This document shows positions 37,715-55,905 of a DNA stretch of 64,000 bases, one piece after another. Each line of letters opens with the position of its first letter. Position 1 is the first letter of the stretch. The translations under genes and the position numbers were made by a program. The notes under the pieces were generated by a model. The model did no database searches and was not told where the DNA came from. It worked only from the letters and a program-made list of their open reading frames with translations. Source of the stretch: Clostridia bacterium (GTDB taxonomy: Bacteria; Bacillota; Clostridia; Oscillospirales; CAG-272); assembly GCA_017501545.1 (NCBI GenBank), contig JAFVWS010000035.1, forward strand, positions 75,408 through 139,407, read 5' to 3'.

Positions 37715-38659
37715 TTATCTTTTAAGGCTTAAAGCAATTTTTACCTTTTCGCAAATTCCCTTTGCGTTTAAGCCATAGTATTCAATAAGCTCCTTTGCTG
37801 GACCACTCTTACCAAACACATCGTTTACGCCGTGCTTAACTACTGGCACTGGGTAATTTTCACCGATTGCCTCAGCAACTGCGCTACCAAGACCACCGAT
37901 AATATTGTGCTCCTCGCTGACAACAACTGCGCCAGTGATTTTTGCATCATCAACAATAGTCTTTACGTCAAGTGGCTTAACCGTGTGGGCGTTGATTACG
38001 GATGCTGAAATGCCATTTTCAAGAAGCATTTTTCTTGCCTCAAGCGCCTCGTAAACCATCATTCCGTTTGCTACGATTGTAACGTCCTTACCCTCGGCAA
38101 GCTTGATTGCCTTGCCTATTTCAAACTTGTAATCATCGTTGTCATTAAAGATAGGAAGTGCAAGTCTGCCAAAGCGAATATATACTGGACCATTATAGTT
38201 TATTGCTGCCTCAACTGCGCATCTTGCCTCAACTGCGTCACTTGGGTTGATTACAACCATACCAGGGATTGTACGCATCAGGGCAATGTCCTCGTTGCAT
38301 TGGTGAGTTGCACCATCCTCACCTACTGAAATGCCTGCGTGTGTTGCGCAGATTTTTACGTTTAGGTGTGGGTAACCGATTGAGTTTCTTACCTGGTCAA
38401 AGCTTCTGCCCGCTGCGAACATAGCAAAGGTGCTTGCAAATGGGATTTTTCCACAGGTGGAAAGGCCGGCTGCAACTGAATACATATTGTTTTCTGCAAT
38501 ACCGCAGTCAAAAAATCTCTCTGGGAATTTTTTCTTAAATATACAAGTCTTTGTAGCCTCGGCAAGGTCTGCATCAAGCACTACAATGTTTTCGTACCTT
38601 TCACCAAGCTCAGCTAATGCATTACCATAGGCTTCTCTTGTTGCAATCTTGTCTGCCAT
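37715..38659 (-). CDS. Transketolase, C-terminal (pyrimidine-binding) subunit
   Basis: It has the split-transketolase architecture, with FDCGIAENNM and HAGISVGEDGATHQ motifs. Its ATG overlaps the stop of the N-terminal subunit gene by 1 nt. Confidence 0.9.
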   Translation of the reverse strand: MADKIATREAYGNALAELGERYENIVVLDADLAEATKTCIFKKKFPERFFDCGIAENNMYSVAAGLSTCGKIPFASTFAMFAAGRSFDQVRNSIGYPHLNVKICATHAGISVGEDGATHQCNEDIALMRTIPGMVVINPSDAVEARCAVEAAINYNGPVYIRFGRLALPIFNDNDDYKFEIGKAIKLAEGKDVTIVANGMMVYEALEARKMLLENGISASVINAHTVKPLDVKTIVDDAKITGAVVVSEEHNIIGGLGSAVAEAIGENYPVPVVKHGVNDVFGKSGPAKELIEYYGLNAKGICEKVKIALSLKR

Positions 38660-39507
38660 TAGTTGTTACCTCCCAAGGAATTTTTGTAAGCTGTAAGCTC
38701 TGAAACTGCAATATTATATTGCTCCTCATTTGGAGCCTTGCCATGCCATGAGGCTTGGTTTTCCATAAATGAAACGCCCTTGCCCTTTATGGTTTTTGCC
38801 ACGATTACGCTTGGCTTGCCCTTGGTCGCCCTTGCATTTTCAAGCGCGCCAAGAATTTCTTCAATATTATGTCCATCAATTGTGATTACGTTCCAGCCAA
38901 AGGCAAGAAGCTTGCTTTCATAAGGCATAGTGTTCATAACGTCTGACACCTTACCATCAATTTGCAAGCCATTATTGTCTATAATTAGACAAAGGTTGTC
39001 AAGCTTATAGTGTGCGGCAAACATAATTGCCTCCCAAACCTGACCCTCTTGGCTTTCGCCATCACCGATAAGGGTATATGTACGATAATTTTTGCCGTCC
39101 ACCTTGCCTGCAAGCGCCATACCACAAGCGCATGAAAAGCCTTGTCCAAGTGAGCCGGCTGACATATCAACGCCCTTAATCGCCTTCATATCAGGGTGTC
39201 CCTGTAAAAGTGCGCCTGTGTGTCTGAAGCTTTTTAATTCCTCTGCTGGGAAAAAGCCCTTAAGTGCAAGTGCAGAATAAAGACCTGGGCAGGAATGTCC
39301 CTTTGAAAGGACAAATCTATCGCGTCCCTCCCACTTTGGGTTATTTACATCAACATTAAGCTCGCTAAAGTATAAGCACGCAAGGATATCAGCTGAGGAA
39401 AGTGCGCCACCTGGGTGTCCACTTTTTGCATTATAAACTGCCTCAACTGCACCAAGACGGATATCAGTTGCGATTTTTTTGAGTTCTAAAATCTTTTGCT
39501 TGTCCAT
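38659..39507 (-). CDS. Transketolase, N-terminal (TPP-binding) subunit
   Basis: GHPGGALSSADI, LSKGHSCP and GDGESQEGQVWEA motifs are present. Confidence 0.9.
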   Translation of the reverse strand: MDKQKILELKKIATDIRLGAVEAVYNAKSGHPGGALSSADILACLYFSELNVDVNNPKWEGRDRFVLSKGHSCPGLYSALALKGFFPAEELKSFRHTGALLQGHPDMKAIKGVDMSAGSLGQGFSCACGMALAGKVDGKNYRTYTLIGDGESQEGQVWEAIMFAAHYKLDNLCLIIDNNGLQIDGKVSDVMNTMPYESKLLAFGWNVITIDGHNIEEILGALENARATKGKPSVIVAKTIKGKGVSFMENQASWHGKAPNEEQYNIAVSELTAYKNSLGGNN

Positions 39508-39643
39508 TTTGCTCTCCTTTAAGCCAAGTGAGTTCCTTGGCGTATATTACATATACACCATTTTAGCATTTTTAAAGCTTAATGTCAATATTATTTAAGA
39601 GGTAAGTTTTGCTGTTTTTAGATGAGGTAATACGAGAGAAATG

Positions 39644-40528
39644 CTATGAGGCTAATCGCTGATTTGTAACATAAACCTTGAATTTTTGCAAATAATCAAT
39701 TTTCTTGATAATGCCACCACGGTGCTCATCCACTACCCACGAAAAGCTTGAGTACATTTGAATAATGCCTGAGGTGATATACATCACAATTTGAAGGGTG
39801 TTCCAAATAAGCACTGCTGGATTTATTTCACTTACGAAGGTAACGCCAAAGTAGCCAAAAATCACAGCCATCACAACGCGTGAAAGTGCATCTGAAAGGT
39901 TTTTCTCTCTTGCGTATTCTCTTTTGCTTTTTCCAAAGTCAAAGGGGTTATTTTCCTTGACTCCGTCACACGTTAAGGCGCTTGGAGTTAAGTGCTTGAT
40001 TTTTAAATTTGATGCCTTGTCGTACGCCCTTTTTCTTTTGAAATTTTCAAAAATCATTTTGCGCTTTTTTCTGCCCTTAGCGCCCTTTATTTCCTCGTCG
40101 GAATATAATTCATAGCTTGATGAGCATAAAATGCCCTCGCTATCAAAAAAGTCATTATAATGCAGTCCTGCAGTGGCTAAGATTTTGCGTCTTAACGAGG
40201 AAATTGCACGCTTATTTTCCATTTCGCAAAAATCCTCAAGCTTGTCAACGTAAGGGGAAATTTCCTCTATGCTTTTTGAATATAGCTGTGCAGTTTTAAT
40301 TGTCCTTTCGTCGCTTTCTCCCTTGTTAATTCCTATAGAACGGAAAACGCCGTTAATAAGAAGCCCGACAAGCATACTGATTACACCCGTGGCAATTATC
40401 TCGCCAACGCTTTTTCCCGTCTTTGAAATAAGAATAAAGCTTCCACCTATGTAAACAAGGGAAATTAGGACTACTGCAATATAGCCTGCGTTTTTATATA
40501 ATGCGTCAAAGAGTGTGATTTTTTTCAT
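39644..40528 (-). CDS. Membrane protein (294 aa), last gene of the island
   Basis: Two N-terminal TM helices, a basic/charged central region (GAKGRKKRKMIFENFKRKR) and two C-terminal TM helices. No family recognised. Confidence 0.55.
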   Translation of the reverse strand: MKKITLFDALYKNAGYIAVVLISLVYIGGSFILISKTGKSVGEIIATGVISMLVGLLINGVFRSIGINKGESDERTIKTAQLYSKSIEEISPYVDKLEDFCEMENKRAISSLRRKILATAGLHYNDFFDSEGILCSSSYELYSDEEIKGAKGRKKRKMIFENFKRKRAYDKASNLKIKHLTPSALTCDGVKENNPFDFGKSKREYAREKNLSDALSRVVMAVIFGYFGVTFVSEINPAVLIWNTLQIVMYITSGIIQMYSSFSWVVDEHRGGIIKKIDYLQKFKVYVTNQRLAS

Positions 40529-40529
40529 A

Positions 40530-40937
40530 TTATACCCGTCCAGAAATTGATTCTATTGCGCTTTTTACTGCCGACTCTGTTTTTTGGTAGGATTTTTTCT
40601 CCTTCTCTTTTCTTATAAAGATGCGTACAACTGCCGAAAGGATTTCTCCCACTAGTGCAAGCAAGGAAAAAACAACGATGTCAGAAATAATGCTTTCCAA
40701 AAGATATGAAAGAATCAAAAGCCCTGCAAAAAACGCAATTGAGCTTTTGATTTTCAAAAAGCCAAGAGCTTTTATTATCAAGATTGCAATTACAAAAATT
40801 GCGCCGAAAAGAAGCTTTATTCCCTCTGGCACGCTTCTTATATACCTATCGTGATTTACTATAAAGTAAATCAAAACTGGCAAAACGCTAAAAAGCACGC
40901 TAAGAATATATAAAAGTGGTAGCTTCATTCTTTTCAT
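40530..40937 (-). CDS. Small polytopic membrane protein (135 aa), holin-like in size and topology
   Basis: Four hydrophobic helices and a charged C-terminal tail. It lies 1 nt from the next gene. Confidence 0.5.
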   Translation of the reverse strand: MKRMKLPLLYILSVLFSVLPVLIYFIVNHDRYIRSVPEGIKLLFGAIFVIAILIIKALGFLKIKSSIAFFAGLLILSYLLESIISDIVVFSLLALVGEILSAVVRIFIRKEKEKKSYQKTESAVKSAIESISGRV

Positions 40938-40939
40938 AA

Positions 40940-41521
40940 TTATTCCTCCTTACAGCTAAGCCTTTCGCACTCTGCCAAAAGTCCACTAATCTTGGCGCCG
41001 TTTCCACTCTTTATTACGTCCTTATTTTGGCTAAAGCCAAGGGACACCATTTTTCCTATATACGTACATTCTGTAATTAGCTTCTGGGTGGACTCTTCAA
41101 GCTCTATTAGTTGCTTTTCAAGACGAGGAATATCTGAAACTATTTTCTTTAATTCCTCTGCCTTTGCGTTTAAGTACTCACTCTGTGCCTTAAAGGACGT
41201 GTCGCGATTTTTCGCCTCTTTTTCAAAGGACTCCTTAGCGCTTCTAATCTTGGCAAGTGAGCTTCTGATGCCTGCCAAGGTCGCAAGTAACGCTGAAACT
41301 GAGGTTAAAACACCAACAATGACAGGTATGATTTTTTCCTTTATGTATTCCTTAATATCTGTTTTTTCCTCGCCGTTTTCCGCCTCGGACAAGCCACCTG
41401 CATCCGTTTCCAAGCTTTCGTCTGGCGTCACGTCGGTAGCAGACGCGCACGAGCGGAAGGCAAACAAAAAAACAAAGGTAAGGACCAAAGCAACTGAAAT
41501 TGTTATAATTAATTTTTTCAT
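40940..41521 (-). CDS. Bitopic membrane/coiled-coil protein (193 aa)
   Basis: N-terminal TM or signal segment, acidic linker, second TM (IIPVIVGVLTSVSALLATLAGI), then a coiled coil (EELKKIVSDIPRLEKQLIELEESTQKL). Confidence 0.5.
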   Translation of the reverse strand: MKKLIITISVALVLTFVFLFAFRSCASATDVTPDESLETDAGGLSEAENGEEKTDIKEYIKEKIIPVIVGVLTSVSALLATLAGIRSSLAKIRSAKESFEKEAKNRDTSFKAQSEYLNAKAEELKKIVSDIPRLEKQLIELEESTQKLITECTYIGKMVSLGFSQNKDVIKSGNGAKISGLLAECERLSCKEE

Positions 41522-41754
41522 TTTTCCTCCTTGAATTTTGGCACGATATAGCCGTTTTCTATTTCGTAAGAGATTATTTCGCCCTCGCCCTCAATTTCTA
41601 AAAGTGGGTACTTGCCCACCATTCTAAAATCATCGTATGATGGGTTGGTTTTCACTCTTCTCTTACCATTTTTGTCGGTATATTCAATTTTATTTTCGAG
41701 GTTTTTTTGTAGCTTTCCCTCGACCAAGCTATAAACGCTTTTATATGCAAGCAT
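41518..41754 (-). CDS. Small hypothetical protein (78 aa)
   Basis: It is translationally coupled on both sides, with a 4-nt overlap downstream and a 1-nt overlap upstream. Confidence 0.5.
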   Translation of the reverse strand: MLAYKSVYSLVEGKLQKNLENKIEYTDKNGKRRVKTNPSYDDFRMVGKYPLLEIEGEGEIISYEIENGYIVPKFKEEK

Positions 41755-43181
41755 TATTCTGCCTCCTTATAAATTAAACTTACTTCCGTATCTTTCTGCG
41801 CCACGCCCTCAATAATTTCACTCGTACGAGTATAGCCAGAAATGTGTGGCACAATGATTTGGTATTTTGAGCCAAGCCTTATAGTGTGTGATTTCGGACT
41901 TGAAATTTCAACACCGCTTTCGTCCAAATACCTTATTAAAAGCGCTCTCTTTTCTTCGTTTTCTTGGCTCATTGAATAGTAGGTTGCCGAAATTCCATTA
42001 GCGCCTATTCCCGAAGCGCTTAGCGTGCCATTTTTGCCACGAGGCACCAAGATGGAAAGCAGTGCTCTTCCAAGGTCGCTATTTGAAATATCATGTGTTA
42101 ATGCCACCCTTCTTTTTAAAAGAATTTTCATAGGACTTCCTGCTATATACAGGTTTCTTATCTGGTTTTTAAAAGCACTTGCCCTTTGAGCCATTTGCGA
42201 GTTTGTAAGGCCTGTGTCGTTTTGATCAGTTTTTATGTAAAGCTGCTTTGTGTTAATGCTAAATATATTGTCCTTTCTTGGTGGCGGATATGTCCAAGGC
42301 TCAAGTGGGAATCTTGTATTGTATCCAACGTTAGGTTCTGCTGCAACCGACAAGCTATACATAAAGAAAACGCCATATCCGGCAGTCATTGCTGAACCAT
42401 ATACACTTGTGCCCTCTATGCCATTATAGATCTTTTGATAGCTCCCCTCCTCGTAAATTACCGTTTTGCTTTTTAAATCCACCCTGAGCGAGTCAAACTC
42501 ACTCATAAGAAGTGTAACGGTTTTGTCAGCTAAGCTTATCTTTTTAGGAAGCTCAATTGTGCTTTTTTCGCCATCGACCTCAAGCGTTAATAGAATGCCA
42601 CTGTCGCCTGCATTTAAAATCGGCGTGTCTATTTCAAAGCAAATAGGCGCCACTGCTGAAAGAGAGTAGCCGTCCCAAAGCTCAATTAGCTCAGTTAGGA
42701 CGTGGACTATATCGCCGTTTTCGTCAGTTACGTCGTCACCCTGTATACCACCAACCATTAAATATGAATATTCCCCACCCGTGTAGCTACTAAGCGTGCC
42801 GTCCTCTGAAAGAAGAGGCACTGTGCTTGCAAAAAGCGGATTTGTACCGTCGCTTAGACTAACCGTTACGCCCAAGACCTGATCCGTTTCAAGAAGCGTA
42901 TAGGTCATATTAACGCCCACCCACTCGCTTGGCAATGGAATATAGTAGTAGCCTGCCACGCCTGCCGAGGAATAATTTGAGATGGTTTTAAAATATTCGC
43001 TCATATTTAAGCCTCTGTCCTCAATGGGCTGAGTTGTTTTGCCCTTGATTAAAAGTGTGCTAAGAGGCGCGCCTGCACTGTCAATAATTTCTATTTTATC
43101 CACACCCGTGGCTGTTCTAAGCGTGCCACTTATCGGATTATTAAAGATTAGGCGCCTTCTTGATAAGTCCTTTTTTCTCAT
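41754..43181 (-). CDS. Putative receptor-binding / tail-fibre-type protein with a C-terminal MucBP-like domain (475 aa)
   Basis: The C-terminal LLIRYLDESGVEISSPKSHTIRLGSKYQIIVPHISGYTRTSEIIEGVAQKDTEVSLIYKE fits the MucBP pattern (xYxDxxGxxI...G..Y......GY......G......V...Y). An ATGA overlap joins it to the upstream gene. Confidence 0.45.
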   Translation of the reverse strand: MRKKDLSRRRLIFNNPISGTLRTATGVDKIEIIDSAGAPLSTLLIKGKTTQPIEDRGLNMSEYFKTISNYSSAGVAGYYYIPLPSEWVGVNMTYTLLETDQVLGVTVSLSDGTNPLFASTVPLLSEDGTLSSYTGGEYSYLMVGGIQGDDVTDENGDIVHVLTELIELWDGYSLSAVAPICFEIDTPILNAGDSGILLTLEVDGEKSTIELPKKISLADKTVTLLMSEFDSLRVDLKSKTVIYEEGSYQKIYNGIEGTSVYGSAMTAGYGVFFMYSLSVAAEPNVGYNTRFPLEPWTYPPPRKDNIFSINTKQLYIKTDQNDTGLTNSQMAQRASAFKNQIRNLYIAGSPMKILLKRRVALTHDISNSDLGRALLSILVPRGKNGTLSASGIGANGISATYYSMSQENEEKRALLIRYLDESGVEISSPKSHTIRLGSKYQIIVPHISGYTRTSEIIEGVAQKDTEVSLIYKEAE

Positions 43182-44257
43182 TCAATTACCTCATAGTCAA
43201 CTGCTCCAACACGTGCAACCAAAGATCCTAAGACTCTTTTTATGCTTATTTCATAAAGCCTGCTTGATACTGGATAAAATGAGCCGTATAGCGTATCGTC
43301 ACCAAGAAAATATAGCTCATACGGTGCGTCAAGCACTGTGGCGCTTGCACCAGATTTAAAATTAATCAGCGCATCAAGGCATTGTGAGTCTGAAACGCTA
43401 AGGGTTAGCTCTGTTAGCGTGCCAAGATTATATTCATAGCCGTTTTCGACTAAAAGATTTGACCCACTATTTTCAATGGTAATTAGTGCGCTTTCCTTTT
43501 TAAGTAGCTCAGCCTCTGCTATCTCAATGCGTGCCTCGTGACTATTTAGCTCTGCCTCTAAGTCGTTTAATTCCTCTCTTTTGGCAAGGCGTGAGGTTTC
43601 AAGGCTTCCCTCGCTGGAAATAAGTCTGACCCCGCCTACAAAATAGCTTAAATCTGGGTATAGTGCAAGCTCACCACTTGCGATTTTCTCGCTATCAAGG
43701 GCTATATCGTCATCTCTTTTTTGAATATTTACGTTAAAGACCGTAAAGTCAGGGGATGCTGGGTCGGCAATTAGATATATGTCGCCAACGCCAGCCTCAC
43801 CTCCACCATTAATATAGTCAAGCATTTCAATTACGTCATCAAAGGTGGAAACACGGCTTTTTCCACTGGCAAGGGCAAGCGCTAACTCGTTTTGCGCCTT
43901 AAGCTCGCTTAGCCTTTGGCTAAGTGCTTGATAACTTGCGCTTATTTTATCTCTTATATCACCATGGGAGGTGTCAAGCTGGTCGTGCTGTGCAATTTGG
44001 CTAACTATCGCCTCACCAAGTGACGTGTCCTTCTTTTGAAGCTCTGAAATTATCCCCTCATACTCATTAAGAAGCGTGTTTATTTCGCCCATATGCAAAT
44101 TGATTTTTTCTGCAAGAGTACGAATGAAATCGTAAAAGTATTTTTTTATTTGTGTTGCCCTTTGTCCAAGTGAGGCTGGTGAGTCTGCCAAGGAATAGGG
44201 CGAATGTAAAATAACCTCAGTTATTTCCTCGTTTGTTAGTTTGAATTTCTCACTCAA
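43178..44257 (-). CDS. Coiled-coil fibre-like protein (359 aa)
   Basis: TTG start with ggaggg upstream. It has long heptad-like stretches (ELKAQNELALALAS and LNDLEAELNSHEARIEIAEAELLKKESAL). The N-terminal SLGQRATQIKKYFYDF resembles prophage tail-fibre N-termini as I recall them. Confidence 0.4.
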   Translation of the reverse strand: MSEKFKLTNEEITEVILHSPYSLADSPASLGQRATQIKKYFYDFIRTLAEKINLHMGEINTLLNEYEGIISELQKKDTSLGEAIVSQIAQHDQLDTSHGDIRDKISASYQALSQRLSELKAQNELALALASGKSRVSTFDDVIEMLDYINGGGEAGVGDIYLIADPASPDFTVFNVNIQKRDDDIALDSEKIASGELALYPDLSYFVGGVRLISSEGSLETSRLAKREELNDLEAELNSHEARIEIAEAELLKKESALITIENSGSNLLVENGYEYNLGTLTELTLSVSDSQCLDALINFKSGASATVLDAPYELYFLGDDTLYGSFYPVSSRLYEISIKRVLGSLVARVGAVDYEVIE

Positions 44258-46754
44258 TTATATTTCCCTCCATATAAATTGCTCCAAGTGAAAATGGCTG
44301 GTCGTTTTCGGTTTTTATAGATACTGCAATATAATCAAAATCGCGGATTATCATTTGTACTGGCACAAGAGTATCAAAGGAAGCATCAAAGCTAAGGGCG
44401 TTGAAGCTCAAGGAGTCAAAGGAAAGGACTGGCGCAAGCTTAACTGTGCGCAAATAATTTGTCTTTTTTGTCCTTGCCTCTAAGAAAATCTCGCCACACG
44501 TGCCCTCGAAAACCGTCAAAAGTATTCTTTTAAGCACTGCCCCTTTTCTTGTTTGGCTCATCATAAACGGCTCCGTTTCATATTGGCACAAAATATCTCT
44601 TGTCCAGGTAAGGCTTATTTCCTTTATGGAGCCTTCAAGCTTAATTTTTTCGCCTCCATCAATTAAAATACAGCCACCCGTTAGCTCATTTACCTCATAT
44701 TCCTTTTTTTCAAGCACCAAATATAAATCGTATTTTTCGTTGCTATCAAGCTCACATTCAGACAAGGTGATTTCTGCCGTATATGGGTTTATTTTTTCAA
44801 TTTGTGCCTCGTTAGTTGTGCCGTCCTTTGCGACAAGTGCAAGGGTGTCGCCCTCGAAAAGCTTAACTCCACCGTCCCTTGAAAAAAGCTCGTTTGGTAA
44901 AAGAGAAGCCTTTAAATCGTTTACCGAGGCTTCCCTTTTTATAAGCCTTTTGTGCGCGCCCAAGGTGGCTTTTATTCTTTCGCCAGCCTTGGTTTTGTGC
45001 ATTGTTTTGTCTATGACAAAAACCGTATAATCCTTATCGTTGTTTACGCTAAGGGTTAAATTATCCACGCTATACGTGTGCGTGTCAGCATCACAAAAGC
45101 CGTCGTAAAGTTTTCTAATTTGGCCACCCTCTGTGCCAAAATATATTTCACTTGCGCTTGCAAAAACTGCTCTTGCTGGCACGTTTTTCCAAAAATACCA
45201 GCTATATTCGCTATTACTTGAAGCTCCTCTTTTTTGGCGCGTATCGGCAATATAGGCGTTTTCGCCTATGAATAAATAGTAGTAGCCGTCGAAGAAAAGT
45301 GAGGTTGCGTTTTGCTTTTCCTCATAACTGTATCCCTTTAACTCACTACAAATATCGCTGGAGCGCTGACTAAGTGCGCTTTTTACGTTAGTAAGAGACT
45401 TATAGTCGCTCACACCAAAAACACCTCTTTCGTTAAATACCAAGCAGTCGTCATCACCGTGGCATGATGAGAAAATGCTATATGCGCCAGCCGTATCTGA
45501 CGAGGTATAAACCTCGTATGGATGGGCTCCACCTGTTAGCACCACTCTAAAAAAGCTATCTTTTTTAAAGGCGCCAAAGATATTGTCCCAAAGCTGAATT
45601 AGCGAGGTGATTTTTTCACCATCTGAGCCAAGGGAGATTTTATTGCTTTTCGGCAGATAGAAAAAGCCCCTTTCCTCGTCGCTGAAATAAATATCGTTTC
45701 CACCAAGGGTTAAGGCTAAAACCTGTCCACCCTTAGCGCCGTTTGTGACTGTGCCCATTTCAATTTGACTGCAAAGCTCCTCGTTTTTCACCTCAGCCTC
45801 GTATTCAACCGTGATATTTTCCTTGTCCTGCCAAGGCGTTGGCACCTCGAAGCCTAAGGAAATTTCACGCTTATTTGAAATTGAAACGCCAAACGGTAGC
45901 TCGTCAAAATCACATATTTTATCGTTATATTTGATTCTGATTTTTGCGCCCTGCTCGTCCAAAATAGGCTCTGCAAGGAAAATTATAGTGCCTGCGCCCA
46001 AGCTGTCTCTTTCGTATCTTAGGGTGACTATTGTGCTTACCTCGTTTCCGTCTGCATCTATGCCGATATACGAGGTGTTGTTTTCATTTACCTCCTCATC
46101 GCTTGTGCGTGTACGGATTTTTACCTCTAACACAAATTTACTGTTGTTGGCAATTTTTTCGTCAAGCAAAAAGACTGACGCCTTACCACTTTTATACTTT
46201 GTGTTTGCGCCGATAAGCTTATTAATTCTGCGTGGGGTTAAAAGGTTTGCGCCCTCGCACTCTATACTTTTGGCGCCGTTTTGATTGTCAGTAATTCCTA
46301 TCGCGGTTACTGGCACGTATGCGTTTTCATTTTCATATGCGCGCTTCACCTTGATACCATCGTATATTAAAAGGTCGCCAGCGCCAACGATAAAGAGGCT
46401 TTCATTCATTAAAAACGCGCTTGAGCGTGCGTCCTTTATCTTAATTCCAACGTCATAAGTAAGCTCGCGTGGGCTTGAAAAGTCCTCATTTAATTCAAAA
46501 AGGTGCGCCCCTGCGTGTACGATTTTGCATTTTACAATCTCACCATTTTTTATATATGAGTAGCTAAAAATGCCGTTAATTCTCAGGGGGCTTTGCAAAG
46601 CGTCCTTAATAGTTATTACGTTTTTGTGGCCCTTGCGCTTTACAAGCCCATTACCACTTGAAATAAGGTTGCAAAGCGCCCCTGTGCGCCTTTTTCCCTC
46701 TATTTTTGTGCCGTTTGCAAGCTCTACCTTAAGTAAGTTTCTTTTAAGTGCCAT
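44250..46754 (-). CDS. Large beta-rich structural-type protein (about 834 aa), possibly tail nozzle/baseplate-like
   Basis: Intact ORF. I prefer the ATG at 46754 (gaggt upstream) to the TTG at 46766. It has repeated strand-turn patterns (SLFFDGYYYLFIGENAYIAD...YSWYFWKNVPARAVFASASEIYFGTEGGQIRKLY) that suggest a beta-propeller. No enzymatic motif was seen. Confidence 0.4.
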   Translation of the reverse strand: MALKRNLLKVELANGTKIEGKRRTGALCNLISSGNGLVKRKGHKNVITIKDALQSPLRINGIFSYSYIKNGEIVKCKIVHAGAHLFELNEDFSSPRELTYDVGIKIKDARSSAFLMNESLFIVGAGDLLIYDGIKVKRAYENENAYVPVTAIGITDNQNGAKSIECEGANLLTPRRINKLIGANTKYKSGKASVFLLDEKIANNSKFVLEVKIRTRTSDEEVNENNTSYIGIDADGNEVSTIVTLRYERDSLGAGTIIFLAEPILDEQGAKIRIKYNDKICDFDELPFGVSISNKREISLGFEVPTPWQDKENITVEYEAEVKNEELCSQIEMGTVTNGAKGGQVLALTLGGNDIYFSDEERGFFYLPKSNKISLGSDGEKITSLIQLWDNIFGAFKKDSFFRVVLTGGAHPYEVYTSSDTAGAYSIFSSCHGDDDCLVFNERGVFGVSDYKSLTNVKSALSQRSSDICSELKGYSYEEKQNATSLFFDGYYYLFIGENAYIADTRQKRGASSNSEYSWYFWKNVPARAVFASASEIYFGTEGGQIRKLYDGFCDADTHTYSVDNLTLSVNNDKDYTVFVIDKTMHKTKAGERIKATLGAHKRLIKREASVNDLKASLLPNELFSRDGGVKLFEGDTLALVAKDGTTNEAQIEKINPYTAEITLSECELDSNEKYDLYLVLEKKEYEVNELTGGCILIDGGEKIKLEGSIKEISLTWTRDILCQYETEPFMMSQTRKGAVLKRILLTVFEGTCGEIFLEARTKKTNYLRTVKLAPVLSFDSLSFNALSFDASFDTLVPVQMIIRDFDYIAVSIKTENDQPFSLGAIYMEGNIIE

Positions 46755-46762
46755 ATTCAACC

Positions 46763-47395
46763 TCAAATACTATAAACAGTCATTACTGCCCCGCCACCAG
46801 TTGGCTTGATTAGAACGCTATTCAAAGCACTTAAAAACTCGTTTTTTGCGTCCTTAGCGCCCTTTTCGTCCTCGCCTAAAATTAACTCCGACCTTACAAA
46901 GTACGGAATTAGCTCTAAAATGGCAGAGTCAAGCTCAATTTCGTATGAATCGCTTGTTTTTTCGCTAATGCGTGGGATTTTTGAATTATATAAAATCTCA
47001 ACCTCGCCATTTTGCGACTCCACAAGCAAAATGCCATCTGCCTCCTTGGTAAAATTAACGCTTTTGCCATTTTGATAAATTGCAATTACGTTGTGCGCCT
47101 CCTTCACTTCATCCTTCAGAGGAACACGCACCATTCCACCTATTTTTGCTTTACCCTTAAGACTTATAGTCTTAATTTCTGTTTTTGACGCGCCCTTTGA
47201 CTCAATAATTGAAAGCGCGCGGTTGATGGCGCCCACGCACGAGTCAAGGTAGCCCTTTAGTGTTGGGTCGCATTTTAAATTAGCGACTGCACTATTTATG
47301 CTTTCGGCGTTGTCGCTATCGAAATGCAAATCAAGCTCTGGAAACACAAGCCTTAGTGCTTCACACTTAATTTCTCCAATTTTAATTTTCTCCAT
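46763..47395 (-). CDS. Hypothetical protein (210 aa), head-tail connector/adaptor-like by size and position
   Basis: Intact ORF directly preceding the 834-aa gene. No motif recognised with confidence. Confidence 0.35.
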   Translation of the reverse strand: MEKIKIGEIKCEALRLVFPELDLHFDSDNAESINSAVANLKCDPTLKGYLDSCVGAINRALSIIESKGASKTEIKTISLKGKAKIGGMVRVPLKDEVKEAHNVIAIYQNGKSVNFTKEADGILLVESQNGEVEILYNSKIPRISEKTSDSYEIELDSAILELIPYFVRSELILGEDEKGAKDAKNEFLSALNSVLIKPTGGGAVMTVYSI

Positions 47396-47403
47396 CTCCT
47401 TTT

Positions 47404-47742
47404 TTAAAAGTCCTCAAACTTCTTATATTCCACCTGCACCTTTTCTCCCTCCTTGAGCTTGTTGCCCGAGGAATCTCTTAAGAAAACAGCCGCCTGTGTA
47501 TCTCCGTTTGAGGCCTTTATTATTTGTGCTAATAAAATCGCCTCTTGATAGCTGATTTTTTCAAAGGGCGATTTTCTTATCGCCTCAGGAAGTGCCTCCT
47601 TGGGCACCTCCTTGGCGAGTAAGCTTTCTAAGGAGTCCTTAAACGTGGTGCGTTTTTTTCTCCTTTTCCTATTTGTTTTTTTCGGTGCTTCGTTTGAGTT
47701 TTCTTTTAGCATTTTATCTCGTTTTCTCCTTTTTCTTCGCAC
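47404..47742 (-). CDS. Small highly basic protein with a small-terminase-like C-terminal motif
   Basis: The N-terminus is RRKRRKR...KKTNRKRRKKR, and the C-terminus has YQEAILLAQIIKASNGDTQAAVFLRDSSGNK. The start is ambiguous between GTG 47742 and ATG 47712. Confidence 0.4.
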   Translation of the reverse strand: MRRKRRKRDKMLKENSNEAPKKTNRKRRKKRTTFKDSLESLLAKEVPKEALPEAIRKSPFEKISYQEAILLAQIIKASNGDTQAAVFLRDSSGNKLKEGEKVQVEYKKFEDF

Positions 47743-47800
47743 CCTTATTATCCCATAATCAAAGCGGTACCAACCGGTACACTTTTCAAAAAATGCAAAA

Positions 47801-47861
47801 AAATAAAGCCCCTAAAATGGGGCTTGGCGTAAAAAAAGAACAGGCATTTGCCTGCTCTTTT
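47801..47861 (-). terminator. Two tandem hairpin terminators downstream of 47867..49480
   Basis: Read on the minus strand, they are gagcaggca-aat-gcctgttc followed by ttttttt (47832-47861) and aagcccc-atttta-ggggctt followed by tattttttt (47801-47826). Confidence 0.6.
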
Positions 47862-47866
47862 ATTAT

Positions 47867-49480
47867 TTATTTTTTAGAAACAGCCTCATAGGTAAGACCT
47901 ACAACTAAGTTAGAGGTTGTGCCATCATTTAAGTAATATGTTTTTCCGTCATTTACTAAATATGCGCAGAAAACTATTGTTGTTTTCTCCTTTTCCAAAG
48001 GAACATTTGTAATCTTTATATTAAAGTAATCATAGTCAAGCTCCTTAAATGAGGCGCTTACCATATTAGCACTTTCAAGAGGAGAAACCTCAGCCCCATC
48101 CTCGTTTAGCATTGCAACAACGCCAAAATCATAGCTGTTTTCAAGATATTTTGTCATTTCCTTATTAACCTTGAATAGCTGTGTCATTGAGCGAGTTGCG
48201 TCAGCGTACTGTGCATATGAAAATCCACGATTGACAAATAGTGGGTCTGCGCTTGGTGTTGTTTCAGCCGTAGCTATGCTACATCTTGCACAAACGCCCT
48301 CGTATGCACCATTTCCAAAATAGTTTTCCCATGTAACGCCTGTAGCTGTTTCCTCGGTTATATTGTGGCCAAGGGCTGGGTTGTCAATTGAATATTGTTC
48401 AACCACTGTTTCAAGAGAATCAAAAGATGTTATATATTCAGCTGTTCCCTGCACTGCTTCGCTATATGCTTGGCGTCCTACTTTTTCACAGGTAGCAGTC
48501 TCTGTAATTGTGACCTTTGCATTTCCTTCTCGGTCGCCCTTTATCTCAATGGAATAATCCTCTGGGAATGTACAATCAATAAAGTTTAATGAATATCTGC
48601 CAGTCCAAAAATAAATGTTTTTGTTTTCAAATATTACATTTTCAATCTCAACAGGCTCTTTTGGACAAGCAGCAACCTCTAAATAACTATCAAAGTAAGC
48701 CTTATGCTTTGCTATTCTTGTATTTTTTATATATGAGCCTTCGCTAAATGAAACACTTTCTTTTCCGCCACCTAATCCGTAAATAACGCTATCCTCGATT
48801 TGGGTCAACGATTGTTTTAATGTGCCGCCAGCATCTCTTCTTCCAACTGCCAAAAGGCTATTTGAATCAGGCACTCTTACAATAGAATTGCTAATCTTTA
48901 CGTTATGCACATGATCACTACTACCCATCATAAATATCGCCCATTCACCTGTGTGATATTGATTGATATACATATTGTTTAACTCAATTGAGCCTTTAGC
49001 AATATATATTGATGGACCGTTAGATGCATAGTCTGGTGATTTTATTCCAGCTGCCTCGTTAGGGTCATTTACTTCTCCGTTTGAAATTGAGATTTTTTGG
49101 TCATTTGGTGCAACATAATTAACAGGGTCAACATCCCAAGTACCATTCAAAATCAATTTTGCATCATTAGAATTTACATACATTCCATAAACAGTGCCAG
49201 CACCTGCCGAACCTGCGTTTGCATAAATTGTATAGCCATTAAAGTTAATAGTAACTGTTTTTGCACCATCAACCTTTATTGCACTGGATGTATTTGGAAT
49301 AGCAATATCCTTTGTTAAATCAATTACAACGCTATCAGTATCCTGTGCGCCGGCTATTGCTGTATGAATGTCATCAAGACTATCAGCTTCTATCTTTATT
49401 TCAGCAGCAAAAACGCCTATTGCGAAAAGGCAAGCTGCCAAAACAGTAAGTGCCAAGGCGATAAAAATTTTCTTTTTCAT
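47867..49480 (-). CDS. Secreted protein (537 aa), possibly a right-handed beta-helix
   Basis: It has a signal peptide (ALALTVLAACLFAIGVFAAE). The N-terminal half has short repeated beta-strand rungs (VVIDLTKDIAIP..., TVTINFNGYTIYAN..., AKLILNGTW). The assignment is tentative. Confidence 0.5.
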   Translation of the reverse strand: MKKKIFIALALTVLAACLFAIGVFAAEIKIEADSLDDIHTAIAGAQDTDSVVIDLTKDIAIPNTSSAIKVDGAKTVTINFNGYTIYANAGSAGAGTVYGMYVNSNDAKLILNGTWDVDPVNYVAPNDQKISISNGEVNDPNEAAGIKSPDYASNGPSIYIAKGSIELNNMYINQYHTGEWAIFMMGSSDHVHNVKISNSIVRVPDSNSLLAVGRRDAGGTLKQSLTQIEDSVIYGLGGGKESVSFSEGSYIKNTRIAKHKAYFDSYLEVAACPKEPVEIENVIFENKNIYFWTGRYSLNFIDCTFPEDYSIEIKGDREGNAKVTITETATCEKVGRQAYSEAVQGTAEYITSFDSLETVVEQYSIDNPALGHNITEETATGVTWENYFGNGAYEGVCARCSIATAETTPSADPLFVNRGFSYAQYADATRSMTQLFKVNKEMTKYLENSYDFGVVAMLNEDGAEVSPLESANMVSASFKELDYDYFNIKITNVPLEKEKTTIVFCAYLVNDGKTYYLNDGTTSNLVVGLTYEAVSKK

Positions 49481-49551: not shown

Positions 49552-51378
49552 TTATTTAAGGTTTTTTATAGCGCTTATAATGTCATCCCTTGTAAATTTG
49601 CAAGCGCTATATAGGTCGCTAAGCAAGCCGTGCTCAACAAAGCCCTCTATTGCGTGGACGTGGACTCTTTGGTGGGATAAAATTGCGCTAATTTTTTCGC
49701 CTACGCCACCGTTTACGTAGCCCTCGTCAATAATATAAACAAGCTCCTTGCCATTGGTAAGTGATTTTAATTTTTCTTTATCGAATGGGAAAATGCGCAC
49801 AAGCTTTATTAGTGCTGTGTCACTATCAAGCCCCTTTATTACCTCGTTTGCAATTCTTGTCATTCTGCCATAGGTAATTATTACCTTTTTAGCCTCTGAA
49901 ATGTTTTTTGAATACGCAAGGCACGCCTCACTGTCGTAAATCATTTCGCACGCACACTCATACTCAGAATATGCGCCCTTAGGATATCTTATTACGTCAA
50001 GAGTGTCACTTGAAATAGATACGCTAAGCACATTTTTTAATTCCTCATAGGTTTCAGGGGAATAAATTTTTGCGTTTGGCACAGCGGTAAATATTGGGTA
50101 ATCAAAAATGCCCTGATGGGTAATTCCATCACCCTCAACAAGACCACATCTGTCAAGAAGCAGGGTTAGTGGCAAATTTTGCAATGAAACGTCATGCAAA
50201 AGCTGGTCATACACTCTTTGCGCAAAGGTTGAATATAGCGCAACCACTGGCTTCAAGCCACTTACGCTAAGTCCTGCGCCGAAGGTTAAGGCATGCTCCT
50301 CAGCAATACCAACGTCGAAAAACCTGTCTGGGTGCTTTTCTTGAAATATGTTAAGTCCTGTGCCATCTGCCATTGCGGCAGTAATTGCACATATTTTTTC
50401 GTCCTCGTCTGCCATTTCTGTAAGGGTAGCGCCAACAAAGCTTGAATAGCTTTCTCTTGGCTCACTAATTACACCTACGTCCTTATCAAATGGGCAAACA
50501 CCGTGATACCTGCTTGGCTCCTTCTCTGCAGGTAAATAGCCAAGCCCCTTTTTGGTTCTTATGTGAATAACCGTTGGCATTTCACGCTTTTTAGCCTCGG
50601 TTAAAACCGTCACAAGCTTTTTAATATTGTTGCCGTCAACTGGGCCTATATAGTTAAGCCCTAAATCCTCAAACATAGTGCTTTTTAAAAAAAGCCTTCT
50701 AAACGCATTTTTCATAAGTGCAAAAAGCTTAACAAAGGGCTTGCCAAGAAGTGGTAAAATACCAATACCACGCTTAGCACCACGCTTGAATCTAAAGTAG
50801 CTACGGCTTATGCGAATGTTTGAAAGGTATTTTGGAAGCCCACCAACGTTTTTAGAAATCGACATTTCATTATCGTTTACGATAATGATTAGCCTCAAAT
50901 CCTTGTCATTACAGTTATTAAGCGCCTCGTAAACCATGCCGTTGGTAAGTGAGCCGTCGCCTATTACTGCAATAGCGTAGCCGTCATTTCCCTGCATTTT
51001 ATTTGCAGTCGCAATTCCAATAGCTGAGGAAACGGAGGTGCCACTATGCCCCTCGGTTAAAACGTCATGCTCACTTTCACGTCTGCTTGGAAAGCCAGAA
51101 ACACCACCAAAGGTGCGAAGGGTGTCAAATTCGTCCTCTCTGCCGGTTAAAATCTTATGCGCGTATGACTGGTGCCCAACATCGAAAATAATTTTATCAT
51201 GTGGGGAGTCAAAAACGTGGTGTAAGGCAATAGTTGCCTCAACCATACCGAGGTTAGATGCTAAGTGACCGCCATTTTTAGAAACAGCAGAAACTATCTT
51301 TTCGCGTAGCTCGCCTGACAAGGCTTGCATTTCCTTTGGTGTCATTGTCTTAAGCTCACTTAAATAATCACGTCCCAT
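49552..51378 (-). CDS. dxs: 1-deoxy-D-xylulose-5-phosphate synthase
   Basis: GGHLASNLGMVEATIALHHVF..DKIIFDVGHQSYAHKILTGR, GDGSLTNGMVYEALN and AEEHALTFGAGL motifs are present. The length is 608 aa. Confidence 0.95.
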   Translation of the reverse strand: MGRDYLSELKTMTPKEMQALSGELREKIVSAVSKNGGHLASNLGMVEATIALHHVFDSPHDKIIFDVGHQSYAHKILTGREDEFDTLRTFGGVSGFPSRRESEHDVLTEGHSGTSVSSAIGIATANKMQGNDGYAIAVIGDGSLTNGMVYEALNNCNDKDLRLIIIVNDNEMSISKNVGGLPKYLSNIRISRSYFRFKRGAKRGIGILPLLGKPFVKLFALMKNAFRRLFLKSTMFEDLGLNYIGPVDGNNIKKLVTVLTEAKKREMPTVIHIRTKKGLGYLPAEKEPSRYHGVCPFDKDVGVISEPRESYSSFVGATLTEMADEDEKICAITAAMADGTGLNIFQEKHPDRFFDVGIAEEHALTFGAGLSVSGLKPVVALYSTFAQRVYDQLLHDVSLQNLPLTLLLDRCGLVEGDGITHQGIFDYPIFTAVPNAKIYSPETYEELKNVLSVSISSDTLDVIRYPKGAYSEYECACEMIYDSEACLAYSKNISEAKKVIITYGRMTRIANEVIKGLDSDTALIKLVRIFPFDKEKLKSLTNGKELVYIIDEGYVNGGVGEKISAILSHQRVHVHAIEGFVEHGLLSDLYSACKFTRDDIISAIKNLK

Positions 51379-55044: not shown

Positions 55045-55905
55045 ATGAAAAAAATTGCCGTATTTATGATTTTTGGTCAATCAAACGCCACAGGACACGG
55101 CGTGCCTATGACTGAAAACGACATTATCAAGGAGCCACTTAAAAACGTTTTCGGCTTGAATCGTGAGCCAAACCAGTCCTTTGACACGGAAAAATTAAAG
55201 TTTACCGGCTATACAAGCTACGGTATGAACTTGGCTGAAAACCAAGACAACACCTACTCTGTGCCCAACTGCCTTGCTAAAAACTGGCAGGCGGAAATTG
55301 ACAATGGTGCAAAGTTGCCCGACCTATATATAATTCAAATTTCCATAGGCTCACAGGGTGTATATGGAATGTGGTCACCAACGCGCCCTAAAAAGCTAAT
55401 TCCTGGCAAGCTGGGGGACTGCGACATTTCAATGTATCCATATGCGTGCCACGTGCTTTCTTTGTTTAATAAATATTTGAATGAAAACGAGCTTGAGCCT
55501 GACTTTGTCGGCATGCACTGGCGTGGCGGTGAGCAGGAGTTTTGGCAGAGTGTGCCTAATTTAAAGGACAACGACAGACTAAAAAACACATATAAGACTA
55601 TCTTTAGTGGTCTTAGAAGCGCCCTTGGCTACGAGTGCCCTATTGTGCTTCACAAAATGAACTTTGAGGCTGTGCTTACTGGCATTGAGGACGGCAAGCA
55701 CCTACCAAGCATGCACTTTATAAACGAGGTGTTTAACGATTTATGCAATGAGGTGCCAAATGTAACTATGTTTGATAGCACCCGTGCCCCACACTATAAT
55801 CCCGAAAACCCATATACACTATTCAGATGGGATTTAATTCATTATAGTCCTGAGACAAACAACTGGGTATCCCGTGACATTTTAGAGGAATACAAAAACA
55901 GATAA
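55045..55905 (+). CDS. SGNH-like carbohydrate esterase (sialate O-acetylesterase-type GQSN motif)
   Basis: The N-terminal IFGQSNATGHG motif is present. The gene starts 2 nt after the GH36 stop. Confidence 0.55.
   Translation: MKKIAVFMIFGQSNATGHGVPMTENDIIKEPLKNVFGLNREPNQSFDTEKLKFTGYTSYGMNLAENQDNTYSVPNCLAKNWQAEIDNGAKLPDLYIIQISIGSQGVYGMWSPTRPKKLIPGKLGDCDISMYPYACHVLSLFNKYLNENELEPDFVGMHWRGGEQEFWQSVPNLKDNDRLKNTYKTIFSGLRSALGYECPIVLHKMNFEAVLTGIEDGKHLPSMHFINEVFNDLCNEVPNVTMFDSTRAPHYNPENPYTLFRWDLIHYSPETNNWVSRDILEEYKNR

Follow-up and report, generated by a model that had tools for sequence, protein, structure and literature searches.

A cluster of nine genes in the chromosome of a Clostridia bacterium (assembly GCA_017501545.1) is, with a probability that we put a little above even, a domesticated fragment of the late operon of a short-tailed phage (podophage), the products of which need a large terminase (TerL), a portal and a capsid supplied in trans. 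The cluster, called the island below, lies in a stretch of 64,000 nucleotides (contig JAFVWS010000035.1, positions 75,408-139,407, forward strand), referred to as the window, where it occupies positions 39644-47742 on the minus strand. It has been inherited vertically and retained for a long time under purifying selection. The genes, numbered g1 to g9 in the direction of transcription, and their control region are as follows.

47747..47781, minus strand: island promoter/operator, with two boxes, a T-rich spacer and an extended -10
47404..47712, minus strand: g1, probable shortened small terminase (TerS)-like protein, 102 amino acids (aa), or 112 aa from an upstream start
46763..47395, minus strand: g2, predicted podovirus head-to-tail adaptor (T7 gp11 / P22 gp4 class), 210 aa, from an AlphaFold2 (AF2) model and Foldseek
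44250..46766, minus strand: g3, predicted podovirus nozzle or tail tubular protein B (T7 gp12 / P22 gp10 class), 838 or 834 aa, from an AF2 model and Foldseek
43178..44257, minus strand: g4, fibre-like protein, 359 aa, from an alignment and a hidden Markov model (HMM)
41754..43181, minus strand: g5, putative receptor-binding protein, 475 aa, with a C-terminal MucBP domain
41518..41754, minus strand: g6, small conserved protein, 78 aa
40940..41521, minus strand: g7, membrane protein, 193 aa, from hydropathy
40530..40937, minus strand: g8, small polytopic membrane protein, 135 aa, with 3-4 transmembrane (TM) segments and a basic C-terminal tail
39644..40528, minus strand: g9, membrane protein, 294 aa, with two TM pairs around a charged domain of ~150 aa

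The listing of open reading frames (ORFs) shows nine intact, co-directional and coupled genes between the transketolase genes and a block formed by a secreted protein and dxs, as an earlier note, made from the letters of the window alone, had described. The overlaps that it reported between g3 and g4 (44250-44257), g4 and g5 (43178-43181), g5 and g6 (1 nucleotide, 41754), and g6 and g7 (4 nucleotides, 41518-41521) are all present, whereas the gap between g2 and g3, given there as 9 nucleotides, measures 8 when g3 starts at ATG 46754. This is the start chosen by gene callers in related genomes and gives 834 aa; the alternative TTG 46766 gives 838 aa. The same note had rightly recognized three membrane proteins of 193, 135 and 294 aa and a MucBP-like C terminus on the 475-aa protein. 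Hydropathy finds 2-4 hydrophobic helices in each of g7, g8 and g9 and no signal peptide or transmembrane segment on g1-g6, and the Pfam MucBP match of g5 is above the cut-off (28 bits compared to 23, E 3.8e-6). Apart from this domain, the Pfam and PHROGs scans of the island are nearly blank, returning phrog_2412 for g1, phrog_13046 for g2 and weak holin hints.

Structure prediction identifies g2 as a podovirus adaptor and g3 as a podovirus nozzle. The AF2 model of g2 (pLDDT 87.6) matches the adaptor fold, which comprises a helical bundle, a beta domain and a C-terminal arm. When the Protein Data Bank (PDB) was searched with this model using Foldseek, the top 17 matches were all podovirus portal-tail or neck complex chains of adaptor size (193-243 residues), with E-values from 7e-7 to 1.6e-3 and TMq of 0.39-0.58; KHP30, Moo19, phicrAss001, SU10, N4, DEV, GP4 and A4 are the phages at the top. 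The motifs MKxGExK, INR and IPYF are common to g2 and the phage adaptors. The g3 model, calculated from an alignment of 43 sequences (pLDDT 88.8, pTM 0.84), matches the nozzle fold, which is multi-domain and beta-propeller-based. Its top 25 PDB matches are all podovirus portal-tail complex chains (E down to 9e-21, TMq 0.29-0.48) from cyanophage A4, T7 (one chain deposited as nozzle gp12), P-SCSP1u, Kp7/Kp9, LME-1, SU10 and P22/Sf6. The best match in BFVD has an E-value of 4e-55 and a TM-score of 0.73, and the named matches there are 'stabilization protein', 'tail tubular protein B' and 'P22 Gp10'.

From size and order alone (T7 gp11 and gp12 have about 196 and 794 aa), the earlier note had guessed that the 210-aa and ~834-aa proteins are an adaptor and a nozzle, and had named Foldseek as a check; run on these two proteins, it returned the podovirus adaptor and nozzle, so that the guess was correct. 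The folds of g2 and g3 match those of T7 gp11/gp12 and P22 gp4/gp10, and the order of the genes, adaptor followed by nozzle with fibre genes close by, is also the same. However, the identity to the T7 and P22 proteins is just 7-15%, and the island is chromosomal and has neither portal nor capsid genes. Furthermore, T7/P22-type ejection proteins are absent after the island tail genes, where the membrane proteins g7-g9 stand instead. There is no cognate portal gene beside g2; portals are found just in full phages and in one mosaic locus, both described below.

Weak tblastn matches pointed to the Bacillus podophage Page and also to the scaffold of a faecal phage, in which genes resembling g2 and g3 come after those for TerS, TerL, portal, scaffold and capsid. 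The nine island families, represented by HMMs built from related loci, were searched for in IMG/VR contigs, and this revealed a well-populated lineage of ~40-kb podophages from gut viromes. The closest phages are UViG_3300032167_007420 (L030/L031), L092, L096 and L097. Their late genes begin in the order terS, terL, small ORF, portal, scaffold, anti-defence gene, capsid, a 121-aa protein, adaptor and nozzle, and continue with g4, g5, g6, g7, g8, g9, a protein of ~350-370 aa and a giant protein of >2,300 aa. In L030/L031 the two proteins after g9 have 371 and 2517 aa, and the same gene order is found in L096, L097 and L092. Island genes g2-g9 are an uninterrupted, collinear, eight-gene segment of this late operon. 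The island is without the terL, portal, scaffold and capsid genes that in the phages stand between terS and the adaptor, and also without the two genes after g9, including the giant protein. The adaptor-nozzle pair comes after the major capsid protein in L002 and L022 as well as in the closest phages (L030/31, L092, L096 and L097). Adaptor, nozzle and the g7-g8-g9 trio are the constant parts of the lineage, and the fibres in between vary. The island adaptor and nozzle are 25-35% identical to those of the phages. An early region in the opposite orientation encodes a C5-methyltransferase-like ORF (with a FAGGGG motif), an XRE-type regulator and a 147-aa sigma-70 region-4-like protein. No PDB or Pfam match was obtained for the proteins of 371 and 715 aa encoded after g9 in the phages, and neither is recognisable as a lysin. 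Among the IMG/VR loci centred on the capsid gene of the lineage, none was a head-only locus.

Several other features of these phages may be recorded here. The anti-defence genes between scaffold and capsid (L031 8377-8778; L092 7277-7669; L096 8012-8374; L097 979-1353) encode Acb2/Tad1-hairpin or Sequestin domains. The giant polyvalent protein of L096 (19153-22955), located after g9, has an ART-PolyVal domain. A reverse transcriptase, annotated by PHROG, is present in the fibre region of L022 (13601-14686) and is read as part of a diversity-generating retroelement that diversifies the fibres. In the full prophages, host-type genes lie within ~0.7-1 kb of terS (L031 1-2071; L092 1-816; L096 1-1999): an XRE regulator and a GH10 protein, a GH43 protein, and a peptidase M14 with GDSL lipases, respectively. 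Only an intergenic region, plus one small ORF in L096, separates them from terS. No integrase was noticed in the parts of the full prophages that were read, where few ORFs were scanned against Pfam. The GH10, GH43 and peptidase M14/GDSL flanks have no similarity to the window, so that these prophages may live outside the island clade.

The fibre region of the island has its counterpart in the phages gene by gene. In g4, conserved domains at the N terminus (~55 aa) and the C terminus enclose a coiled coil in which the sequence HNxSxxAHxDIR is repeated. The g4 HMM aligns from end to end with the post-nozzle gene of the closest phages (E 6e-129 to 1e-79), and far more weakly (E ~1e-8) with that of more distant phages, where this gene varies in length. 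The orthologue of g5 occupies the same position in L030/L031 (HMM E 7e-145) and in L096/L097. Although g5 is the fastest-evolving gene of the island, its ratio of non-synonymous to synonymous substitutions (dN/dS) of 0.23-0.29 still indicates purifying selection. Its hydropathy profile lacks the N-terminal hydrophobic, transmembrane or anchor segment of a surface adhesin. Profile searches with g4 and g5 against PDB sequences gave nothing meaningful, and tblastn searches of GenBank phages with g4, g5 and g9 gave no match. The small protein g6 is 62-68% identical across species, is missing in L005/L010, and has an orthologue in phages L030, L096 and L097.

The last three genes encode membrane proteins. 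Gp g7 has at its N terminus either a transmembrane segment or a signal; an acidic region, the length of which varies, and another transmembrane segment follow, and a coiled coil forms the C terminus. Weak hints of a holin family come from g7 as well as from its phage orthologue, which in most members of the lineage stands before the orthologues of g8 and g9 at the end of the tail module. The phage orthologues of g8 are found with E-values of 1e-21 to 5e-48, and the dN/dS of g8 is 0.12-0.20. The most conserved protein of the island is g9 (dN/dS 0.055-0.12). Its family comprises >251 clusters, the members of which are found in full prophages (L030, L096, L097) as well as in headless islands beside the transketolase (tkt) genes (L064, L065, L093, L098). 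Because g2-g9 are a collinear segment of a phage late operon, the trio, which is the best-conserved part of the island, is phage-derived as well and part of the end of the tail module, with no recognisable lysin adjacent. It belongs to a large uncharacterised family (>250 clusters) that closes the tail module of the whole phage lineage. Holin-like release and control of entry are candidate roles for it.

The first gene, g1, differs from the rest in that, as such, it is not present in the closest phages (L030/L031, L092, L096 and L097 lineage) according to the family HMM. Its likely start is ATG 47712, because GTG 47742, the start of the 112-aa form, falls within the leader motif GGTGCGA, which is conserved across species, and because the gene of a sister strain was called as 102 aa. 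The protein has a basic N terminus, a conserved helical core (EAILLAQIIKAxNGDTQAAVFLRDSSGNK) and an invariant C-terminal KFEDF. It matches phrog_2412 (E 2.6e-8), which is without an annotated function. The HMM of the g1 family matches the ORF immediately upstream of terL in podophage contig L024 (E 2e-4), in which the core motif reads ...LSLWRSVINKGDTSAFIALRDTVGEKP. An exhaustive search of 1.84 billion representative proteins found 118 small relatives of g1 and one 531-aa fusion protein, P0324. Residues 26-103 of this fusion form a g1-like TerS domain and residues 348-530 a TerL nuclease domain, which matches SPP1 G2P (2wbn, E 1e-35). Profile searches against PDB sequences gave no match between g1 and a solved TerS, and tblastn against GenBank phages gave one weak match.

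The C-terminal peptide of g1 is its most telling part. Of 4,951 ORFs of >=60 aa in all fetched sequences, 33 end in FED[LFIM], and every one of them is an island g1 or a TerS of the related phages. The island proteins end in ...KKFEDF and the TerS proteins of the phage lineage in ...VKKFEDF or ...VKFEDL. It is the peptide itself that appears to be conserved, because synonymous codons (GAA/GAG, GAT/GAC, TTT/TTC, AAA/AAG) alternate at KFED[FL] in both islands and phages, and because no terL follows g1 in the islands. The C terminus of TerS is the segment that interacts with TerL, and this segment is the part conserved in the 107-aa TerS of the Rhodobacter capsulatus gene-transfer agent (RcGTA) (PMC6854486). 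At the level of sequence, g1 carries such a segment in the shared KFED[FL]. The TerS proteins of the phage lineage have 160-203 aa, so that g1 is about half their size; one of them has an HTH_28-type match. Thus g1 is likely a shortened small terminase that has retained a putative TerL-docking tail, and the small-terminase-like motif that the earlier note saw in the first gene agrees with both the match of its family HMM to the ORF before terL and the KFEDF tail.

The genes that flank the island are host genes.

37715-38659: tktC, one part of a split transketolase, on the g9 side
38659-39507: tktN, the other part, on the g9 side
47867-49480, minus strand: 537-aa secreted protein, on the g1 side
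49552-51378: dxs, following the secreted protein

The position of the island between these genes is conserved. The 834-aa protein has ~40 relatives with 39-44% identity, all in metagenome-assembled genomes (MAGs) of Clostridia/Eubacteriales from human and ruminant guts. In every locus with enough flanking sequence (L003, L005, L007-L016 and L093, which include nine GTDB species representatives) the order is dxs, a variable secreted protein, g1 to g9, tktN, tktC, a 163-aa lipoprotein and spoIIE. The earlier note had proposed to look for the island between tkt and dxs in related genomes, and in all these loci it has been kept. In a second, deeper lineage (L064, L065, L098), with tkt 75-78% identical, the outer flanks differ, and g1 to g9 are again directly upstream of tktN-tktC. 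At least 13 species-level genomes have the island at this site. None of 80 metagenome loci with tktN 61-79% identical contains an island gene, including one at 77% with 1.4 kb of sequence upstream, so the island is confined to particular lineages.

Amino acid identities to the window are 83-89% for tktN and tktC, 63-65% for dxs and 41-55% for spoIIE; for the island they are 60-73% (g9), 53-61% (g8), 52-67% (g1) and 31-53% (g2-g5) across species. Pairwise dN/dS is 0.05-0.35 for all nine genes at dS of 0.7-1.7, g8 and g9 being the most constrained. The synonymous divergence of the island is similar to that of its flanks (g3 1.15 compared to dxs 1.18 between L003 and L008). For seven of the island genes, g1-g4 and g7-g9, the distance matrices are correlated with that of tkt (Mantel r 0.77-0.90, p <= 0.0065). 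The conserved position, the purifying selection and the co-divergence with the host show that the island has been retained over a long time. The nozzle gene of L098 (4754-7199) is split into ORFs of 661 and 160 aa, either by a frameshift error or by starting decay.

What the island lacks was examined in several ways. The Pfam and PHROGs scans of the island and the larger neighbouring ORFs found no integrase, replication, lysogeny, TerL, portal, capsid or lysin families, and among the scanned ORFs at 47.8-64 kb PHROGs found nothing phage-like. Queries with the TerL, portal, scaffold, capsid, 121-aa, 371-aa and giant proteins of four phages (tblastn) had no homologue in the window or in any island locus including its flanks, the loci being readable only ~10 kb either side of each match. 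The window contains no endolysin gene and no tRNA gene. There are no direct, att-type repeats at the borders of the island, and its base composition is not distinct from that of the surroundings. The statements of the earlier note that head, packaging motor, integrase and endolysin genes and att-like repeats are all missing therefore stand. Its tandem terminators at 47801-47861 are also real: two hairpins with T-runs, resembling terminators, are found at ~47806-47861 and belong to the gene upstream of the island. No terminator was found between g9 and tktN, so that island transcripts may read through into the transketolase genes. In the gap 39508-39643, tktN has its own strong sigma-70-type promoter on the minus strand (39588-39560), with a near-consensus TTGACA-17-TAAAAT and a TG.

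One locus departs from this pattern. L066 (GCA_052836005.1, JAZMOS010000003.1, 1-10888) has portal, scaffold, capsid, adaptor, nozzle and g4 to g9 followed by tktN at the same site and with the same outer flanks. Its proteins compare with phage L031 and with the islands as follows.

Portal, scaffold and capsid: 66-81% identical to L031, with no island counterpart
Adaptor: 65% to L031 and 26-34% to the islands
Nozzle: 44% to L031 and 23-29% to the islands
g7, g8 and g9: 32%, 40% and 57% to L031 and 34-54%, 43-62% and 54-67% to the islands

The closest relatives of L066 g9 (84-85%) belong to ordinary headless islands. The possibility that L066 represents the ancestral state was rejected, its head, adaptor and nozzle being nearer to phage L031 and the nearest relatives of its g9 being headless. 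It is a derived mosaic, created either by recombination of a phage into a resident island or as an assembly chimera across the homologous region. If it is a true recombinant, then these phages infect hosts that carry the island.

The region upstream of g1 contains one conserved promoter. The boxes TGTACCG and GGTACCG (47781-47775 and 47771-47765) form a direct repeat with a spacing of 10 bp, the second of them ending 12 bp ahead of an extended -10, TGnGATAAT. The hexamer GATAAT is at 47752-47747, and the GGTGCGA leader comes next; there is no -35. Across nine species the motif is TGTACCG-N3/4-GTACCG-(C/G)TTTTTTTATGCAATAAT-N6-GGTGCGA, found at 47781-47740 in the window, and a shortened pattern is TGTACC-N12-TTTTTTNATGCAATAAT. 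It occurs once per bacterial locus, always upstream of g1, and L064, of the deep lineage, still has the -10 and the T-run. Two boxes repeated after one helical turn, an extended -10 and the lack of a -35 together make the layout of an activator-dependent promoter, and judged by eye the island promoter is probably of this type. The nearby spoIIE made a sporulation-sigma promoter conceivable, but on visual inspection the motif agrees with none of the consensus sequences for sigma E, K, F and G, and the idea was dropped; an SOS/LexA box was dropped as well, none being seen by eye. The exact pattern has no match in IMG/VR or the metagenome collection, neither at a second locus nor in a phage contig. 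Nevertheless, upstream of terS, the intergenic region of the three closest full phages contains TGTACCTAA boxes in tandem, and another phage has TTTTTTTTTTGCAATAAT directly before terS. This suggests that the island promoter, or a binding site for TerS or an activator, descends from the terS control region of a phage. The match is short and the spacing differs, so this descent is a lead and not a result.

Taken alone, the island would be expected to yield no particle: in well-studied podoviruses the portal is the site on which the adaptor oligomerises, and without TerL there is nothing to which a TerS tail could dock. Both the TerS tail that was kept and the need of the adaptor for a portal favour dependence on head genes supplied in trans. 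TerL, portal and capsid would then reach the island products from elsewhere, most likely from the related podophages, because these have the same TerS tail and occur as prophages in similar MAGs. Gp g1 would engage the supplied TerL, and the island adaptor, nozzle and fibres would be mounted on the supplied heads. The tail of such particles, and possibly their DNA content, would be dictated by the host chromosome in the manner of a gene-transfer agent (GTA). An unlinked chromosomal head locus is a less likely source; it would make the island part of a split podovirus-type GTA. The genes of RcGTA are likewise spread over several loci. The earlier note had thought of a domesticated tail or adhesin module or of an element dependent on a helper phage. 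The phage tail and its retention have been borne out; the adhesin variant is not favoured, because export signals are found only on the membrane trio.

Several points weigh against the dependence on phage heads. All the hosts are uncultured MAGs, so that the evidence is sequence-based, and the search for head and TerL genes in island-bearing genomes spans the ~10 kb on either side of each match. The codons for KFED[FL] coincide in part, in the phages, with the ribosome-binding site and start codon of terL, and some of the conservation there may be due to this overlap. With just 25-35% identity between the adaptors and nozzles of islands and phages, those of the islands may not fit the portals of phages living today. 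The L066 contig may be a chimera of metagenome assembly. For induction by a phage factor, the support consists of the TGTACC boxes common to both and of extended -10 elements of similar form in a few phages; the promoter as a whole was not found in any phage contig. Finally, elements that need a helper from outside are seldom inherited vertically for so long.

A more specific form of this dependence, which we hold to be a possible though minority reading, is a helper-dependent podovirus-type GTA, in which g1 would seize the TerL of a related podophage, whether resident or incoming, by means of KFEDF, host DNA would be packaged, and chromosome-encoded tails would finish the heads. The TGTACCG boxes before g1 might serve as the loading site. 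RcGTA resembles the island in that it consists of phage structural genes without integrase or replication genes, is inherited vertically under purifying selection and has a host-type promoter; the island shows the same vertical inheritance and purifying selection. Both have a very short TerS (107 aa in RcGTA gp1 and 102 aa in g1) with a conserved C-terminal TerL-interaction segment (PMC6854486). Unlike the island, which has a tail and TerS and neither head nor TerL, the siphovirus-like RcGTA has TerL, portal and capsid in its main cluster.

A comparison with phage satellites is also instructive. In SaPI/PICI, PLE and P4 elements, a TerS or a TerL-binding protein redirects or blocks the packaging motor of the helper, and the helper supplies the missing half of the virion. 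The capsid-forming PICIs (cf-PICIs) make heads and take tails, and the island, as far as its genes tell, is their mirror image. Satellites are, however, mobile and carry integrase, excision and replication genes. The island is without such genes and without att repeats, and its divergence follows that of its host.

It is unlikely that the island makes an autonomous headless tail, that is, a tailocin-like or adhesive complex that is put together in the cytoplasm, leaves the cell by means of the holin-like trio and acts on neighbours or surfaces. The full set of tail parts under purifying selection, the conserved promoter of their own, the weak holin hints of g7 and its phage orthologue, and the MucBP domain of g5 would all suit such a complex. 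R-type and F-type tailocins show that this route of domestication exists: pyocins, diffocins and monocins are likewise headless, chromosomally fixed tail clusters under selection. However, tailocins have contractile or long flexible tails and lysis cassettes and need no portal or terminase, whereas the island has a podovirus tail, has kept TerS and has no endolysin. Pfam and PHROGs find in it no sheath, tube, tape measure, baseplate or lysis cassette. A headless tail would leave unexplained why a TerS-like protein with an invariant putative TerL-docking tail has been kept. In addition, it would have to be built without the portal on which a podovirus adaptor oligomerises and of which the window has none, a podovirus tail has no known killing mechanism of its own, and no podovirus-type tailocin is described in the literature searched.

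Interference with phages is, in our estimate, similarly doubtful. Gp g1 would act as a decoy for phage TerL, the diverged adaptor and nozzle would cap portals, and the membrane trio would block entry or lyse the cell early. The C-terminal tail of g1 is the same as that of TerS in the related phages, g8 and g9 are the most constrained genes of the island, and L066 may be a sign that phages meet the island. There are precedents: PLE Gpi binds and blocks phage TerL, and PLE mimics the pac site of the phage (10.1101/2024.04.22.590561), and a prophage protein can reportedly block the assembly of virions (PMC10884400). Gpi is, like g1, a small island protein, although the binding of g1 to TerL is suggested only by the shared C-terminal peptide; pac mimicry recalls the TGTACC boxes, as both resemble sequence upstream of phage terS. 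Gpi is unrelated to TerS and PLE is mobile, unlike g1 and its island. A decoy needs neither an intact fibre nor a receptor-binding protein, yet g4 and g5 are under purifying selection, and because these genes are intact and selected the production of a working tail is favoured over pure interference. Furthermore, defence islands are usually patchy and mobile, whereas this one is fixed and co-diverges with its host, and the PADLOC models gave nothing significant.

It is very improbable that the island is the end of an ordinary prophage or a decaying remnant without a function of its own. All nine genes do have phage relatives, the split nozzle of L098 may be decay, and L066 has head genes at the same site. 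Yet the host genes dxs and tkt stand on both sides within the window, the same nine intact genes occupy the same site in at least 13 diverged genomes, their dN/dS is 0.05-0.35 with distances congruent with those of the host, and the head-bearing L066 is derived and mosaic. The island does not have the make-up of an intact or inducible prophage. The earlier note had argued from the long ORFs that it is not a decaying remnant, and had named two findings that would overturn its view, namely non-phage families and an adjacent complete prophage; position, selection and co-divergence support the former, and with regard to the latter the families of the proteins are those of phages, and on both sides the block borders on host genes. 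That the island is an ordinary cell-surface adhesin operon with a chance likeness to phage genes is barely credible: MucBP on g5, the gut hosts and the three membrane proteins are outweighed by the lack of any detectable signal peptide, membrane or sorting segment on g2-g5, by the specific podovirus folds of g2 and g3, and by the collinearity of the whole block with phage genomes.

To our knowledge, the known domestications of phage tails (R- and F-type tailocins, extracellular contractile injection systems and type VI secretion systems) all derive from long-tailed phages, and the best-studied GTA, RcGTA, is siphovirus-like. The literature searched contains no podovirus-type tailocin or GTA and no headless satellite that encodes a tail; a podovirus tail as a host-kept module and a satellite with a tail and no head are unreported there. 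The island represents a podovirus adaptor, nozzle and fibre set that is held by selection, together with a TerS of GTA size, at one site in at least two deep lineages of gut Clostridia. If it does complete or redirect phage heads, the gut microbiome would have a new way of transferring genes or of interfering with phages, and a natural trans-assembly of chromosome-encoded tails with phage-encoded heads.

Two neighbours of the island deserve mention. The 537-aa secreted protein has a signal peptide and no Pfam or PHROG match, and is present only in some species (L008, L009, L015). It is hypervariable, with dN 0.43 and dS 0.62 between two near-identical strains, the flanks of which have dS 0.02-0.08. 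A 286-aa protein (55045-55905, plus strand), encoded directly after a GH36 alpha-galactosidase and also without a Pfam or PHROG match, is unusually well conserved, being 91-94% identical across species in which dxs is just 63-65% identical.

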